Shown piece after piece: positions 9,300 to 29,912 of a stretch of DNA of 64,000 nucleotides. The notes below the pieces were generated by a model. That model had not been told where the DNA came from. It worked only from the letters and a program-made list of their open reading frames with translations, and made no database searches. The DNA lies in sequence record NC_101838.1; one strand, 5' to 3'. Position numbers and translations under genes: made by a program. Source of the stretch: a phage. Positions within the stretch are counted from its first letter, which is position 1. Each line of letters begins with the position of its first letter.

Positions 9300-9688
9300 T
9301 GAAAAATATTTGGGATATTGATATCTTTGAAGCCTCTAAGCTTGACGGTGCTGATGGAGTTATTATGGTGTCTGATGGCAAGGCAACACTAACTTCCGGA
9401 GATATCATCTATGCCTTGGACGAGCTGGCGCTTCTGAAATCTACCGGTAACACTTTAGAGGAGCGTCTTCAAGGCTTCGCCTTCAAAGAAGGTACAAATA
9501 CCGCCATGATGTGCACCACACGGACAGTTCAGGTTGGTAACGGTGTCTATATGATCATTGCGGTGTGTTATAAATTCAGCAACGTCAATAAAGATGATGC
9601 TGACGCTGTCAACGATGTGGTTGTTCTCTTCGTAGGTGACGCTATGGCAGACCTGATGAATGCAGGAGAAGCGGCAAATGAAGACTGA
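9296..9688 (+). CDS. hypothetical protein
   Basis: ORF, overlap-coupled. Confidence 0.5.
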   Translation: MMKNIWDIDIFEASKLDGADGVIMVSDGKATLTSGDIIYALDELALLKSTGNTLEERLQGFAFKEGTNTAMMCTTRTVQVGNGVYMIIAVCYKFSNVNKDDADAVNDVVVLFVGDAMADLMNAGEAANED

Positions 9689-9980
9689 AAACATTACCCC
9701 AGCAGGGTTCTTAAAAGTATACCGTGAACTGCTATATACTACAGAGGACAGTGTTCTAGAGTATCCAGAATATCTTTTGCTGTATAAGTATCTGCAGGAG
9801 GCTGGTGAAAATCTGCCAGTTAGTGCAGAAGGTGGTCCGAACTGGATATACAGCGCATGGAGAAAGGTTGACATTCTCCCAGATCCAGGTAAAGATATGG
9901 TAGTTTGGCAGCTTATCAACAACATTGGGATTCCAATCTTTGATGAAGCTGTTAAAATCTATTTTGAACTTGACGATTAA
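9678..9980 (+). CDS. hypothetical protein
   Basis: ATG after AGGAGAAG RBS (track start 9660). Confidence 0.45.
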   Translation: MKTENITPAGFLKVYRELLYTTEDSVLEYPEYLLLYKYLQEAGENLPVSAEGGPNWIYSAWRKVDILPDPGKDMVVWQLINNIGIPIFDEAVKIYFELDD

Positions 9981-15460: not shown

Positions 15461-15499
15461 TACTTGAAAATTCCTGGCATATCAAGTATAAGGGGGATT

Positions 15500-15960
15500 T
15501 CTAAAATGGATTTCCTCCTTTTGATATTTCACCGGGCTGGATATTTTAAAATTCTTAGAAAATCAGAAAATGGATCGAAAACTAAAATGGATTTTTCAGA
15601 GTAGGCGCGACAAGCTGAATAACTCATCCTATCGTTTGCACCATATTCCAGGCCACCATTATAGATTTCCCACACATGCTAACCTCCCTCTACTAGAACT
15701 TCCTCCACTTACCCTTGACCTTCTATGGTAACAATCTAACCGCTATCTTGAAGTTGCGGTGCAGCTTTCCAGGTACTCGATCTACTTTTCATTTCAGGGC
15801 TTGGATTTTCTGAAAATTTTTCTCGATAAATTTCTCAGTACTCGATCTGTTTTTCGTTTTCTGAATCGGATTTTCTGGAAATCGTTCCGGCTCTCAACCT
15901 GAAATTTTTGGGGACGAAATCGATTTTTCGTTTTCAGAAATGGATTTTTAAAATTTCTAT
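15500..15960. repeat. iteron-like direct repeat cluster (candidate replication origin or packaging-related site)
   Basis: Repeated AAATGGATTT, GGATTTTCTGRAAAT and ACTCGATCT...TTTTCRTTT units in a non-coding region. Confidence 0.55.
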
Positions 15961-16065
15961 ATGGGAATATTTTAGTGGATACTATTTTATAGTAAATTGT
16001 TACGGAGGGTAATTAGCGTGCTAATTAAATTTATTAAATGCGAGGAGTTCTCATTTAGAATCTTG

Positions 16066-16084
16066 AATGATAATCATTCTCGTT
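16066..16084. promoter_or_regulatory. Fur-box-like site
   Basis: GAATGATAATCATTCTC closely matches Fur consensus GATAATGATAATCATTATC. Confidence 0.45.
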
Positions 16085-16197
16085 TGCAGAATAACGGGCA
16101 GGCCCGGTGATTGTCTCCCGGCCCCTGTTGCCCCGGCTTGTTATTATAGTATCACACAGGACAAAGAAAGCAAGGATTTTTTGCATAAATTTTTAAA

Positions 16198-16216
16198 TGA
16201 TAATGATAACCGTTCT
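16198..16216. promoter_or_regulatory. Fur-box-like site (second copy)
   Basis: GATAATGATAACCGTTCTC; about 130 bp downstream of the first. Confidence 0.4.
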
Positions 16217-16473
16217 CATTTTATGCAGCGCTCATCCCTGGTGGTTGTCTCCCCCGTCACCGGTGCCTGCCGTCCTTTCGATAGGTATATTGTGCCACCT
16301 GTCGGGGCCGCTGTCAACACTTTTCAAAAAATTTTTCTAACCTGATGCGCTAACCGCTGCAACCTGGCGGGGCCAGCCTGGCAGGACCTAACTGACCAGG
16401 TGGGAGAGGGTGAAATCTTGCAAACCTGGTAGGCCCATGCTGTAGGGTAAACAATTGAAGAGGAGGTACAAAA

Positions 16474-25140: not shown

Positions 25141-25172
25141 AACAGGGCTTGCAATGGTCCTGTTTTTTGTTA
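25141..25172 (+). terminator. rho-independent terminator
   Basis: AACAGGGC-loop-GTCCTGTT followed by TTTTTGTT. Confidence 0.6.
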
Positions 25173-25255
25173 TACTTGTTTCACGGCAGGCACCTGGCGA
25201 CGGGGGGGGGAGACAATCACCGGGTGTGCCTGCTATATAAAAACTATAAAAACCG

Positions 25256-26081: not shown

Positions 26082-26501
26082 ATGAACATTAAATCTAATA
26101 ATCCGGCATATAGCTTTGATAACGCTTTTTGTCACGGTCCGGCGGCGAAAGGATTCGAAATCGATGGTAAACTAATTATTGTCAATGTTGACGGGGAAGA
26201 GGTTGCAGTATATCCGGTGGCAGACGTAAAAAGCCGTTTACAATGCCGCATGGATGTTACCGCCTATCAGCTTGATCCGGTTCGCATAGTTGCCCTGGTC
26301 CTGGAAGAAGAAATTAAAGCCATGCACCATAGCAACAGGTTTATTGGTGACGCTCAGGATAATATGAAGGTGTGCCGCCATAAAGTTAATGAAGTGCTTA
26401 AAGAGTACGGCTATAAAGATCTTATGATCAAACGTGATGAAAAATTCCGCTACCGTAACGACCTGGCAAATCGGATTTTTGAAATATACGAATCATTATA
26501 A
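26082..26501 (+). CDS. hypothetical protein
   Basis: AAGAGG RBS. Confidence 0.55.
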   Translation: MNIKSNNPAYSFDNAFCHGPAAKGFEIDGKLIIVNVDGEEVAVYPVADVKSRLQCRMDVTAYQLDPVRIVALVLEEEIKAMHHSNRFIGDAQDNMKVCRHKVNEVLKEYGYKDLMIKRDEKFRYRNDLANRIFEIYESL

Positions 26502-26519
26502 TTTTTTAACTGAATTATC

Positions 26520-26546
26520 AAGGGGCTTAGCCCCTTTCTTTTTGTC
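26520..26546 (+). terminator. rho-independent terminator closing the plus-strand block
   Basis: AAGGGGC-TTA-GCCCCTT followed by TCTTTTT. Confidence 0.65.
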
Positions 26547-27464
26547 TGCTCTTCCCCCTACCATAAACGGCCCTACCTGGAAAGTGGAATAATTGACGAG
26601 CCATCAATCCCACACACTGTACAAACATACATGTAAAATAGCTATTGCATAACCTTTCATTGTGTGGTAGCGGTGCTATTTTTTACCAGTTTTCCTTCCA
26701 AAATTGCACGTAATGCAGCTATTGCATAAATTTTAACCTGATGCATATCTTCAATATCTTGTCAACAAATAAAAATTCTTATAAGTCATACACTTATACC
26801 CCCACAAAAGCGTTCTCTACGTGAAAAATCGGGCATAACTATAGCCGCCAGATCTCAGAATTTACGTACGCTCGCCATTCTATAGCCTGCTAAGTATTTA
26901 TTCCAACCATAGAATAATGGAATAGTCAATACCTGAATAAAATAATTATTCGTTTAAACTGCATAACATAAATCAGCTCAGGTGTCAACATTTTTCGTAA
27001 ACAGTCTTAAATTGTCACTGTGAGTTATCATAAACAGAGAAATCTTTAGTCGTCTAATGTTTACTGTACGTTACTATACTGACTGGAATCATTAGATGAC
27101 TAATAGAAAGATAAGAAATAATTAACGATACAATTATTTTACCTGTAACAATAAGGCAACTATGCAAACGAATGGCATGGCGCGACGGAGTCGCGACATA
27201 ATATAAAAGCAGTAACCATCACCCCCGTGATAGTTTGTCTGCAAACTATTAATCAGATCATAGTTGCCTTGTATTTAGTTAATCATGACATAACAAGCAA
27301 GGCAACTATAGATCTTCTAATAGTTGCCCTGCTTTTATATTATGTCATGCTAATTATAATCAGTGCGATTATTGTCATGCAAACGAATGGCATGGCTTAT
27401 CATCTCTGTGTAAACAATCTATGCGTGAACAGTGAAACATGAAATAATAACAGTCGTTATTGTG

Positions 27465-27520
27465 TCAAGTATTCCGATTGTGTCACCATTGTGTCTAAAG
27501 TGTCATATTGTGTCAGACAA
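27465..27520. repeat. four closely spaced ATTGTGTCA-type direct repeats
   Basis: ttattgtgtcaag, attgtgtcacc, attgtgtctaa, tattgtgtcagac in tandem. Confidence 0.5.
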
Positions 27521-27969
27521 GTTTTTCTCCTCTTTGTCAAGTGCTGCATGAAAAATTTACAAACTGGTATGGTAGCATTTTTGCGGACCTGTTTACATTC
27601 AGGAGTGTATGTATAATCCTTGTTGTGTGGGCGTTTATACGTCTGGACGGTCAGAAGTCTGCAGGTTAATATCTAATCTATTGGCTGCTAACTATATCCC
27701 ACACAAATGATAAGAAATATAATTGTTATATGCGTAAACTGTAACTCATGTTATCAATCCCTGTATGGATCGCCAGTGGTGCGCATAATGGGTATTATGT
27801 TAAATTGCCCGTAATGATAAAGGTTCTCACAATGATAGGTATTCTCATTCACCCTCACAAAATAGATTGCAAATGTTGTGCCACTGTGTGAACGGCCTCA
27901 CCTATTAATTTGCCTCACTGCCTCGATATTTGAGAATTATTATAAGAATGAGAAGTATTCCCATTCCGT

Positions 27970-28330
27970 CCGCCTGGCAGCACTCCTGTAGGTCCTGCAA
28001 GGACTCTAGCTTTCAGCTAGACCCTTCGGGCCTCCCTGTAGGTCAGGTCAAAATCGGGGTAGAATTGGGCCTATTCAGATATTTCTGGCTGACTCTTCAG
28101 GTCTGTGTGGGAAAAGCCAACCTCTCCGGCGGGGCAGGGGGATATCTGCGGGAAAATTGCAGGTCAATTAAAAAATTTACGTGGTATATGAAGCGCTCTT
28201 CAGGTAAGGCATGTATTATGGGATGAAACCCTCTTCAGGCAATGATATTTGTGGGTGTGATATTTGCTGGAAAGCCAGATATGACGGGACTCCCGGCGGG
28301 GCAGGGGTGGTACAGACAGGGAAAATATGA
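27970..28330. repeat. degenerate repeat cluster in non-coding DNA
   Basis: Recurring CCTGTAGGTC (x2), CCGGCGGGGCAGGGG (x2) and CTCTTCAGG units. Confidence 0.45.
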
Positions 28331-29005
28331 AGGATGTGGTTGGGTAGATTGATCAGACAGGTAGAGTATGGAATATGTTACAAGTATGTTAAATATGGAG
28401 GTTGAATATCTGTAGGATTTGTGTGTAAAATCAAAGACTTAAGTGGTGTTGTGGTATTTTCTATAAATAATTCAAGTTTAATAGGCAATATTTGTCTCTA
28501 TCCGCTTTGTGTGGTAAACAGATTCAGATTAGATTGGTTTACAAGTGTATACATAATATACAAATTAAAGATACAAGAAACCCCCCCTCCCCCCTTCGGC
28601 TACCATTCACCTTTTCCTCTGACTGGTACTTAAACACTTATTCAGACTCTTCAGGTTATCACCCATATATCATATGGCAGTGACTGGTGTCCTCCGGCCC
28701 CTCTTTCGTCACCCGTCCGCTTCGCCATGCTAATGCCATAGCTAATGGTTCGGTTGTTCACCCTGTTCACTCAGGTGTATCTCTATACCCCTTCAAACCG
28801 AAGAGAACAGAAAACCCGAATTACTCGGTAAAAGAAAAGAGAAGAACTTAATTTTATCAGGATAGGCAAGAATGTCAAGGTATGACTGCTCACTAAACAA
28901 GCAAACAGTCATGTGTGGGAGGTAAGTGATTGTGGTGGTAGGAAATTTAGTTGAAAGATGTGTTATAGGTGCTTCCAGCACTTTAGCCGGGCAGCTAATT
29001 GTGTG

Positions 29006-29221
29006 TCAGTCCAGCGGTTCATCCTCTACTTCACTGAAATCAATGTTCATGGTCTCTTCCCAACCATCGATCTCAGCACAAGAGTGGAGTTCTTTAGGGT
29101 TTACTCCCAAAGCCTCAGCAACAGAGTCTATATTTAACACCTCTGGCAGGTATGATTCATCGAATTCAAGGTAAATCAGGCCACGAGTGTTGTCAGCTCC
29201 ACCAAATATCTCTATCTTCAT
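29006..29221 (-). CDS. hypothetical acidic protein
   Basis: AGAGGAGA RBS. Confidence 0.45.
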   Translation of the reverse strand: MKIEIFGGADNTRGLIYLEFDESYLPEVLNIDSVAEALGVNPKELHSCAEIDGWEETMNIDFSEVEDEPLD

Positions 29222-29342
29222 AAAATCTCCTCTGGGAATGAAAGTGTGAACAGGGTTTTATACGTTCTAATGCACAGGAATTATACACGTTTGCCTCTTC
29301 AGGCCATGCTTTAGCATGAGGAACCTGTGTGGGCTCGGTGCT

Positions 29343-29555
29343 TCATAGTCTACCACCTCTGAACTCTTCGTGCTCAGGCATAATAGAGAACCAGATATCT
29401 ACGATGTCTTCCCACGTTAGGTCATCAGCCTCAGGATCTACCTGGAGCGAAGATGGAGAATCTTCAGAATCTAAGTTTTCCTCTTTCACTGGCTCAGCCA
29501 AGGGACATATAGTCACTCCTTTGGATGTCTCTTCAGATGCATGTGTGTTTATCAT
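29343..29555 (-). CDS. hypothetical acidic protein
   Basis: ORF. Confidence 0.4.
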   Translation of the reverse strand: MINTHASEETSKGVTICPLAEPVKEENLDSEDSPSSLQVDPEADDLTWEDIVDIWFSIMPEHEEFRGGRL

Positions 29556-29653
29556 GTTCCACCCGTGAGTATTCCGGCAACAGCCGCTATGGACGTAATG
29601 ATCATCAGGATCACCACTAAAACTTCGGACAATGTTCTCATTGTGTACTCCAT
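29552..29653 (-). CDS. small membrane peptide (33 aa, not in ORF track)
   Basis: ATG downstream of promoter; hydrophobic core; stop overlaps next start. Confidence 0.3.
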   Translation of the reverse strand: MEYTMRTLSEVLVVILMIITSIAAVAGILTGGT

Positions 29654-29668
29654 ATTCTACAAACTATG

Positions 29669-29699
29669 TGTGGATACTATCACTGGATCGGTAATGTGT
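29669..29699 (-). promoter_or_regulatory. sigma70 promoter for the last minus-strand genes
   Basis: On minus strand TTGACA-N17-TAGTAT; the -35 lies inside a tandem 17-bp direct repeat. Confidence 0.5.
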
Positions 29700-29883
29700 C
29701 AACAGTCGGTAATGTGTCAACAGAAACGCCGCGAGGGTTTGGTTAAAATCCGAGCGTATGGTGATTTGGGTCAAAACGGACGTGCGTTCTCGCTACGCTC
29801 GAAATATGGAGTTGTTTGTAGGGAGCTCTTAAACGCTCTGTAATGAGATTAACTGCCCAAGGTATGCAATCGTGCACCAGATA

Positions 29884-29912
29884 AAGAAAAGGACGCCACA
29901 GAGCGTCCTAGG
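29884..29912 (-). terminator. rho-independent terminator (minus strand)
   Basis: GGACGC-loop-GCGTCC followed on minus strand by TTTTCTTTAT. Confidence 0.5.

Follow-up and report, generated by a model that had tools for sequence, protein, structure and literature searches.

Results

A non-coding gap with Fur-like boxes

We analyzed a 64,000-nucleotide stretch of phage DNA (NC_101838.1; the window), in which sequences resembling the operator of the iron sensor Fur lie near 16 kb. The 1-kb stretch around these boxes was 99.9% identical to Escherichia phage vB_EcoM_HdK5 and 80-100% identical to 121 rV5-like phages (genus Vequintavirus); on these identities, the window is Vequintavirus (rV5-like coliphage) genome. 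The boxes lie within a gap of ~1 kb (15461-16473) that holds no credible genes and is flanked on both sides by long series of small + strand genes. The open reading frames (ORFs) that some records annotate in the gap are not real, because the records disagree, no family match was found, and a natural 134-nt deletion, not a multiple of three, is present in the viable BASEL phage AlexBoehm. The ORF at 16067-16345 (+) had no family match and is broken by this deletion, and the ORF at 16055-16186 (-) had no family match and is annotated differently between records. The initial annotation, made from the sequence without database searches, had called this DNA non-coding, which was borne out. No tRNA was found in the region, and no known RNA family (Rfam). 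A replication origin was rejected by GC skew, which showed no inflection at 16 kb and a single switch near 30 kb, where gene orientation changes.

The initial annotation had described two Fur-box-like sequences ~130 bp apart. Its coordinates were right within 1-2 nt (GAATGATAATCATTCTC at 16065-16081 and GATAATGATAACCGTTCTC at 16199-16217), and the measured start-to-start spacing was 134-136 bp. The first, box1 (16063-16092), is an extended operator-like site of five hexamers in a 6-nt register (TTGAAT, GATAAT, CATTCT, CGTTTG and CAGAAT) with a 7-1-7 core, TGATAATCATTCTCG, at 16068-16082; read as TTGAATGATAATCATTCTC (16063-16081), it matched the Fur consensus GATAATGATAATCATTATC at 15 of 19 positions. 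The second, box2 (AAATGATAATGATAACCGTTCTCATTT, 16195-16221), is of the classical 19-bp type, with two 7-1-7 cores (16198 and 16204) offset by 6 nt, and its 19-mer at 16199-16217 matched at 16 of 19. A further Fur-like palindrome absent from the initial annotation, box0 (AAATGCGAGGAGTTCTCATTT, 16036-16056), is half-degenerate, with a perfect right half and a decayed left half, and is homologous to the distal box TGAGAAGnnTTCTCA of phages GAP31, 4MG, KpS8 and anhysbys.

Sites were scored with a 21-nt matrix built from 23 boxes of nine relatives, with the window excluded (the relatives' matrix; consensus AAATGAGAATCATTCTCATTT). Box1 scored 26.7 bits, box2 24.4 bits and box0 20.2 bits, compared to a mean best score of 11.3 bits in shuffled sequences. 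Five sites in the window reached at least 19 bits (0.025 expected), no site in the other 75 kb of the closest genome exceeded 12.1 bits, and strong sites number ~5 per 139-kb genome. When mismatches to the Fur consensus were counted instead, box2 was the only sequence in 64 kb with three or fewer (0.01 expected), and five strand-hits in the window had four or fewer (0.32 expected).

Likeness to Escherichia coli Fur operators

The relatives' matrix was run on 250 kb of E. coli K-12 DNA that included eight intergenic regions taken as Fur-controlled (<1% of the DNA). The ryhB and fecI promoters ranked first and second, and 9 of the 13 top hits fell inside the eight regions, the promoters picked being those of ryhB, fecI, fecA, cirA, fhuA, entC/fepB, fepA/fes and entS. 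A matrix was also built in the reverse direction from the best consensus match in each of the eight K-12 regions. It ranked box2 first (21.0 bits) and box1 second (20.3 bits) in the whole window, compared to 18.8-22.8 bits for its own training sites, and the eight K-12 promoters scored 12-16/19 against the same consensus. This consensus is the one cited for MG1655 (PMC7157518). The 7-1-7 inverted heptamer TGATAATnATTATCA, with pairs overlapping at a 6-nt offset, is that of Baichoo and Helmann 2002 (PMC135393, as cited in PMC7157518), and the heptamer architecture, the 6-nt offset pairs and the hexamer register are all seen in the boxes.

The boxes had been called close matches to the Fur operator, and this held: the matches are non-random, are kept across genera and are recovered by matrices in both directions. 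As judged by sequence, the boxes are indistinguishable from strong E. coli Fur sites, and Fur probably binds them. A search with E. coli Fur (tblastn) found no homologue in these phages, which rules out a phage-encoded Fur. ArgR, KdgR, Zur, LexA, CRP, DnaA and IHF were judged a poor fit by half-site spacing or core. Among the K-12 sequences, high-scoring Fur-like sites were also present in the map/rpsB (L012, 189580-189600) and yeiS/preT (L015, 2233860-2233880) intergenic regions, for which we know of no Fur regulation.

Conservation among relatives

A sensitive search recovered the unit of box and GC-rich segment in Seunavirus (GAP31, 4MG and GEC_vB_MG), Certrevirus (CR8, CB7 and F4M1E), Mydovirus (KpS8), phage W70 and Phapecoctavirus (anhysbys). 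Phapecoctavirus is a member of another subfamily, and conservation thus spans two subfamilies. The proximal box (box1) was found in every genus examined, though neighbouring spacers had diverged. It is a perfect TGATAATCATTATCA in 4MG and, together with its surroundings, is invariant in seven Vequintavirus genomes. Box2 is restricted to the genus Vequintavirus. The relatives carry arrays of 2-4 boxes exactly 29 bp apart, with four boxes in Certrevirus and Phapecoctavirus. The commonest box form, TGATAAT-n-ATTCTCA, is asymmetric and uncompensated, and therefore suggests a protein site, at which T/G is tolerated as it is by Fur, rather than a hairpin; an RNA or cruciform role for the palindromes was excluded on this ground.

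These data bear on whether the boxes are chance AT-rich palindromes or functionless relics. The gap is AT-rich, and single exact matches in IMG/VR could, by our rough estimate, be near the expected number. However, five sites stand against 0.025 expected, the boxes are kept across two subfamilies with diverging flanks and are invariant in the seven Vequintavirus genomes, and multi-site arrays cannot arise in this way. On this sequence evidence we regard a chance origin as effectively refuted and its remaining probability as very small.

Minus-strand promoters, leader motifs and the place of the boxes

The initial annotation had noted a similar GC-rich segment after each box, and both were confirmed (GGTGATTGTCTCCCGG at 16106-16121 and GGTGGTTGTCTCCCCC at 16240-16255; repeat families D7 and D9). 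On the minus strand, segment A (16096-16133) is a possible imperfect stem-loop or leader with the invariant motif GAGACAATCACC (the + strand GGTGATTGTCTCCCGG) and predicted folds of -17 to -22 kcal/mol. Segment B (16225-16271, minus strand; repeat D9) also folds and holds the second copy of the leader motif, GAGACAACCACC (the + strand GGTGGTTGTCTCCCCC), with a right arm, TCACCGGTGCCTGCC, that complements the left arm of segment A.

Beyond each segment lies a putative minus-strand promoter. P(-)A (16146-16173; TTGCTT-16-TACTAT with a TG extension), read from the sequence, points leftward into segment A and then box1. P(-)B (16289-16317; TTGACA-17-TGgCACAAT), given 10/12 with TG by a promoter scan, points leftward into segment B and then box2; it is invariant in seven genomes, and its homologue in the other genera is the promoter of another, also conserved, RNA-like element. 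In all genera the -35 TTGnnn and -10 TAnnnT are kept 16-18 nt apart, with a fully diverged spacer sequence, and in both units the minus-strand promoters point at the boxes. Because these conserved promoters sit beyond the segments on the minus strand, the segments are predicted to be transcribed towards the boxes, which fall at about +45 to +85. The centre of box2 is at about -69 relative to the P(-)A start. The repeated module is a sigma-70 promoter followed by a leader with an invariant GAGACAAnCACC in all copies and genera, and strong, non-random, conserved Fur-type sites lie at a fixed position relative to these conserved promoters.

A third copy of the module, unit C, lies between genes on the + strand (25149-25233). 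It consists of TTGCAA-16-TATACT followed by GGCAGGCACCTGG...GGGGGGAGACAATCACC...GGGTGTGCCTGC (in a second description, GGCAGGCACC...GGGGGGAGACAATCACC...GTGCCTGC), contains the exact 13-mer GGAGACAATCACC, and is kept in Vequintavirus and Phapecoctavirus. In a search for targets of the loop motif, this copy was the only exact match, all others having at least two mismatches and a number near chance. A Klebsiella phage contig has yet another copy (L017:404-463), at a distance of ~11 kb from unit A.

Each segment copy may form an imperfect stem-loop (-12 to -33 kcal/mol). Covariation was not significant, with 69.6% of cells paired compared to 68.2% in shuffles and a few G-C to G-U to A-U series in the outer stem. 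Because RNAalifold returned no consensus structure across the segment copies and pair counts were not above shuffles, the GC-rich element is called a leader motif here and not a proven structure. The segments had no Rfam match at the gathering score or at E up to 5, a scan found no Rho-independent terminator near them, and no resemblance to the pseudo-ToxI of phage phiTE was seen by eye.

The deletion in AlexBoehm (Bas56, L029) corresponds to window 16111-16244 and arose by recombination between two GGTGrTTGTCTCCC segments, which joined unit A to unit B, with the loss of box2 and P(-)A. This phage keeps a single fused A/B unit, so one unit is enough. The arms of the hybrid unit are perfectly complementary (GGCAGGC-CCGGTGA / TCACCGG-t-GCCTGCC, -33 kcal/mol), and therefore, in phages with two units, pairing over ~150 nt is possible between the left A arm and the right B arm.

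The place of unit B in Vequintavirus is occupied in relatives by an RNA-like element of ~100 nt that is highly conserved and absent from the window (minus strand ...CGCCACCCCACGGCGAAAAGGCGGGGCTAACGTACCGGG...GGTCGGAAGGTGGATCGCCGGTAG; L002:1660-1790, L003:1640-1760, L001:1690-1790 and L009:1640-1760). It has its own conserved minus-strand promoter and no Rfam match, and a small minus-strand gene lies beside it, the GAP31 copy of which (63 aa) matches DUF7170. The module of promoter and GAGACAAnCACC leader and the neighbouring RNA-like element add to the uncharacterised non-coding features of these phages.

The initial annotation had suggested iron-responsive control of a small RNA or leader, with each box upstream of a GC-rich RNA on the + strand. 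The resemblance to Fur operators stood, but the layout was not supported: since the module is read on the minus strand towards the boxes, from conserved promoters on the opposite side, and unit C is boxless, the locus is not arranged as a small RNA preceded by a Fur box. A related reading is that box1 (and box2) overlap rightward promoters at which Fe-Fur represses a + strand small RNA or leader starting with the GC-rich hairpin; such an RNA would be antisense to the leftward leaders and might read into the early genes from 16474. A + strand candidate over box1, TTGAAT-18-CAGAAT, holds the box1 core exactly in its 18-nt spacer, with a start at the foot of hairpin A, and Fur boxes canonically sit within a promoter in this way, as at ryhB. 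Transcripts from upstream could also be ended just ahead of the boxes by a + strand hairpin with a T-rich run behind it (16010-16037). Yet this candidate matched at only 8/12 positions and was unreported by the promoter scan, W70 and Phapecoctavirus lack its -35, box2 has CAGCGC in place of a -10, folding of the + strand did not outdo shuffles (z = +0.8), and neither a terminator nor an Rfam match was found for a + strand RNA. Because the -11 A is lost in KpS8 (CTGAAT) and CB7 (CGGAAT) while GAAT keeps the 6-nt hexamer register, CAGAAT is read as an operator hexamer first and only possibly as a -10. We consider repression of a rightward RNA unlikely.

A second cluster at the genome end

Phage Gotham has experimentally defined ends with a 459-bp direct terminal repeat (PMC7471380). 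This repeat corresponds to window 27516-27974 and encloses a second cluster of boxes (27810-27966), which the initial annotation lacked. The cluster comprises the boxes TAATGATAAAGGTTCTCAC and CAATGATAGGTATTCTCATTC (27810-27850; 19.7 bits at 27830) and a run of the hexamers GAGAAT, TATTAT, AAGAAT, GAGAAG and TATTCC with the box GAATGAGAAGTATTCCCATTC (27932-27966; 22.0 bits; positions 9-29 of the Gotham record). It is kept in FFH2 and EPFV3, where the first box is TGATAAC-n-ATTCTCA. With the Gotham ends as reference, one of its boxes begins 8 nt from the physical end of the DNA. Measured from the left end so defined, the 16-kb boxes lie at 11.16-11.35 kb, or 8.1-8.3% of the genome, and the gap at ~11.0-12.0 kb; all genes between the left end and the gap point towards the end.

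The surroundings of both clusters are rich in repeats. Left of the 16-kb boxes, three direct repeats of ~65 nt, GTACTCGATC...TTTTCGTTTTC...GGATTTTCT, occupy 15763-15948 (repeat families D1 and D2), and three equivalent GATC-carrying repeats are present in GAP31, 4MG, CR8, CB7 and F4M1E. The repeats of the relatives are rich in GATC (CTCGATCGA...CGTATTTTTTCT). Five GGATTT(T) motifs were also seen within 450 bp (15498-15950) left of the boxes; an origin, a pac site or an entry element are possibilities for these motifs and the ~65-nt repeats. The second cluster lies in ~3.4 kb of non-coding DNA (26500-29900), where gene orientation and GC skew switch, which contains the genome termini and corresponds to the 'non-coding' box of the rV5 genome paper. 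Five TTGTGTCA motifs (27458-27516) and inverted copies of GCAAACGAATGGCATGG were found there.

Arrays in other phages and the T5 injection stop signal

The exact motif AATGAKAATNATTMTCATT was present in at least 120 IMG/VR contigs. Among the loci fetched, 67 had at least two strong sites, in many cases regularly arrayed and in many cases textbook 19-mers (GATAATGATAATCATTCTC). The arrays (L041-L158) hold 2-9 boxes spaced ~29-43 bp apart on unrelated contigs with GC of 0.21-0.57. In 11 of 47 array loci the array lay a median of ~0.8 kb from a terminase large subunit gene, and the motif was within 10% of a contig end in 18 of 41 whole contigs (p = 4e-4), a bias that could reflect true termini or assembly breaks at repeats. 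Several array loci are T5-like phages (L142, L052, L063, L145 and L135; T5 itself is L159, array record 9540-9720), with sites of up to 34-35 bits, and in T5 the array adjoins the known DnaA boxes. The T5-like array region had no match in a plasmid collection, and a phage-plasmid origin was rejected, the loci being T5-like phages.

In T5 the same motif, CATTCCGCTTTTTAAATGAGAATCATT, makes up the DRD repeat array that lies within the annotated injection stop signal (iss). Its sites at 9551, 9586, 9655 and 9690 scored 16-34 bits with the rV5-derived matrix (AAATGAGAATCATTATCATTT, 34.2 bits at 9655), and the array lies at 7.8-8.0% of the genome. The shear site of first-step transfer, at ~9618 (7.9%), is inside the array, and the iss has been described as unresolved for ~50 years (Davison 2020, bioRxiv 10.1101/866236). 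A perfect Fur 7-1-7 core, TGATAATCATTATCA, was also seen inside dmp, 230 nt from the left terminus of T5 (L161, 230-250).

The rV5-like gap may be an element like the T5 iss, in which the array, bound by Fur or by another protein, would belong to a nucleoprotein structure marking where the first-entering segment ends, as well as the termini. The relative positions of the two arrays agree (8.1-8.3% and 7.8-8.0% from the left end), and a box lies 8 nt from the virion DNA end. Each of the ~40 small genes that separate the end from the gap has a sigma-70 promoter and is oriented towards the end. Like the gap, the iss (Repeat Region 3) is ~1 kb, non-coding, repeat-rich and located between gene blocks, and it holds an array of the AAATGAGAATCATT...TCATTT motif together with repeats of ~65 nt; the window has three boxes and its relatives up to four. 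In contrast, T5 carries paired DnaA boxes in large inverted repeats (IRD'/IRC'), four of them in 9437-9518, whereas none was found (at most one mismatch) in 15461-16473. The T5 region is enclosed by a 10-kb terminal repeat, whereas the gap is not duplicated at the right end of the rV5-like genome, because the terminal repeat there (Gotham) is 459 bp. A tblastn search of a whole Vequintavirus genome found no homologue of T5 A1 or A2 below E = 4. The likeness is one of motif and layout, with no alignable homology beyond the box motif, and to our knowledge two-step injection has not been reported for rV5-like phages. Equivalence of the gap to the iss is doubtful on this balance. A binding protein shared by the T5-like and rV5-like phages was rejected as a candidate, the only shared gene being probably a homing endonuclease (by position) and an implausible binder.

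The same comparisons bear on whether a protein other than Fur (a phage initiator or regulator, a terminase subunit or another host factor) binds the palindromes, the likeness to Fur being convergent. With its position-4 G and AAA/TTT flanks, the 21-bp consensus AAATGAGAATCATTCTCATTT is more specific than that of Fur, the 29-bp arrays beside ~65-nt repeats resemble the iterons of an origin or pac site, many units in T5-like phages are half-sites in direct repeat, and arrays adjoin terminase genes in 11 uncultured phages. However, the rV5-like, T5-like and terminase-linked groups (contig GC 0.21-0.57) share the motif and no neighbouring gene family. Many copies elsewhere are textbook 19-mers (GATAATGATAATCATTCTC, 18/19) with an extra upstream hexamer predicted only by the Fur model, the relatives' matrix picks Fur promoters in E. 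coli, and the KdgR, ArgR and Zur consensus sequences fit worse. A non-Fur protein is quite unlikely on these grounds.

Discussion

We tentatively favour the reading that the boxes are host Fe-Fur operators gating transcription across the boundary region; this is possible rather than probable, both Fur as the binding protein and a transcriptional gate as its effect being what we infer. The boxes would be sites for dimers of the host iron sensor (Fe2+-Fur), retained by selection in a conserved non-coding boundary. A host factor, rather than a phage protein, is suggested because the same motif occurs in unrelated phages with no common candidate binding protein. The outward order is P(-)B, segment B and box2, followed by P(-)A, segment A, box1 and box0, which would place the boxes immediately downstream of outward-facing modules. 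In an iron-replete cell, Fe-Fur would occupy box1, with its 30 bp and five hexamers, and box2, with its double 7-1-7; there it would block leftward transcripts entering the AT-rich repeats and running antisense into the upstream genes, and may also occlude the weak convergent rightward promoter in box1. In an iron-starved cell, apo-Fur would leave and transcription across the boundary would change.

Several points weigh against this gate. Fur normally represses by overlapping the -35/-10, and no good promoter overlaps a box (8/12 at box1, with the -11 A lost in two genera); we are also not aware that Fur has been documented to act as a roadblock at +45 to +85. The module works boxless in unit C, and AlexBoehm can dispense with box2 and P(-)A. 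The even 29-bp spacing of the arrays, the box that lies 8 nt from the genome end and the arrays next to terminase genes in other phages look more like parts of architecture, packaging or entry than like promoter control. At its position 4 the heptamer mostly has G (68% TGAGAAT), compared to T in the textbook consensus; GAGAAT is also found in the K-12 ryhB and fecI promoter sites picked by the matrix.

The boxes might instead titrate Fe-Fur as the genome replicates, which would shift the iron homeostasis of the host or release the phage DNA from Fur. In strength the sites equal the best ones of the host, and the arrays are not tied to good promoters, form two clusters per genome and reach 6-9 boxes in other phages; in the Fur titration assay (FURTA), a multicopy Fur box derepresses the regulon. 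Titration would not, however, need a fixed place beside conserved promoters or the same relative genome position as in T5, and only ~5 strong sites are present per 139-kb genome. Derepression of host genes cannot be a general purpose, because T5 has the same arrays yet degrades host DNA within minutes. We give such a sponge little credence.

If Fur does bind, large virulent coliphages would either sense the iron state of the host or make use of one of its abundant DNA-binding proteins, both at a conserved control region and at the ends of their DNA. Because iron is normally limiting in the gut and at infection sites, such control would have a direct bearing on the behaviour of rV5-like and T5-like phages in phage therapy. 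By analogy with T5, Fur-type arrays might even be a widespread phage element that marks the ends and the inner border of first-entering DNA, with the rV5-like gap as the counterpart of the iss and host Fur or iron status holding or releasing DNA or switching early transcription. We think this improbable; if true, the iss would gain a concrete, testable protein partner. With the motif exactly where first-step transfer of T5 stops, an old unexplained observation becomes experimentally simple.

The Fur box is a textbook operator of bacteria, and its occurrence on a temperate phage (stx1) is already known. Conserved Fur-type boxes in the control regions and termini of virulent phages, and their identity with the T5 iss repeats, appear to be new: no published report of conserved Fur boxes in virulent phage genomes was found in the literature searched, the rV5 and CB7 genome papers do not mention Fur boxes, and Davison's analysis of the T5 iss does not mention Fur (bioRxiv 10.1101/866236).

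Among known systems, the E. coli Fur operators (ryhB, fhuA, fecI and iucA) have the same 19-bp and 7-1-7 architecture, GAGAAT/GATAAT hexamers and comparable scores. The ryhB GAATGAGAATGATTATTATTG and fhuA ATAATCATTCTCGTTT sites are near-identical to box1. The E. coli sites overlap the -35/-10 of the promoter that they regulate, whereas no convincing promoter overlaps the phage boxes, which are located downstream of conserved promoters and in relatives are separate palindromes at a regular 29-bp spacing. Small RNAs of the RyhB type likewise have Fur-box sequences adjoining a short structured non-coding segment; the phage segments, however, have neither an Rfam match nor a Rho-independent terminator, their conserved promoter lies beyond them on the other strand, and the third copy is boxless. 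The lambda nut and HK022 put sites, by analogy, are likewise conserved sequences or stem-loops 10-50 nt past the start of selected promoters, in several copies per genome. They share no sequence similarity with the segments, for which covariation is not significant and a partner is not known, and the analogy serves as a lead only. A phage precedent is the Fur-repressed stx1 promoter of Stx1-converting lambdoid prophages, reportedly described by Calderwood and Mekalanos in 1987, where a phage-borne Fur box likewise makes a phage function iron-responsive. There, a temperate prophage carries a host-benefit gene and one box over the toxin promoter, whereas the rV5-like phage is virulent and, with no obvious regulated gene, carries several boxes in non-coding control regions and at its terminus.

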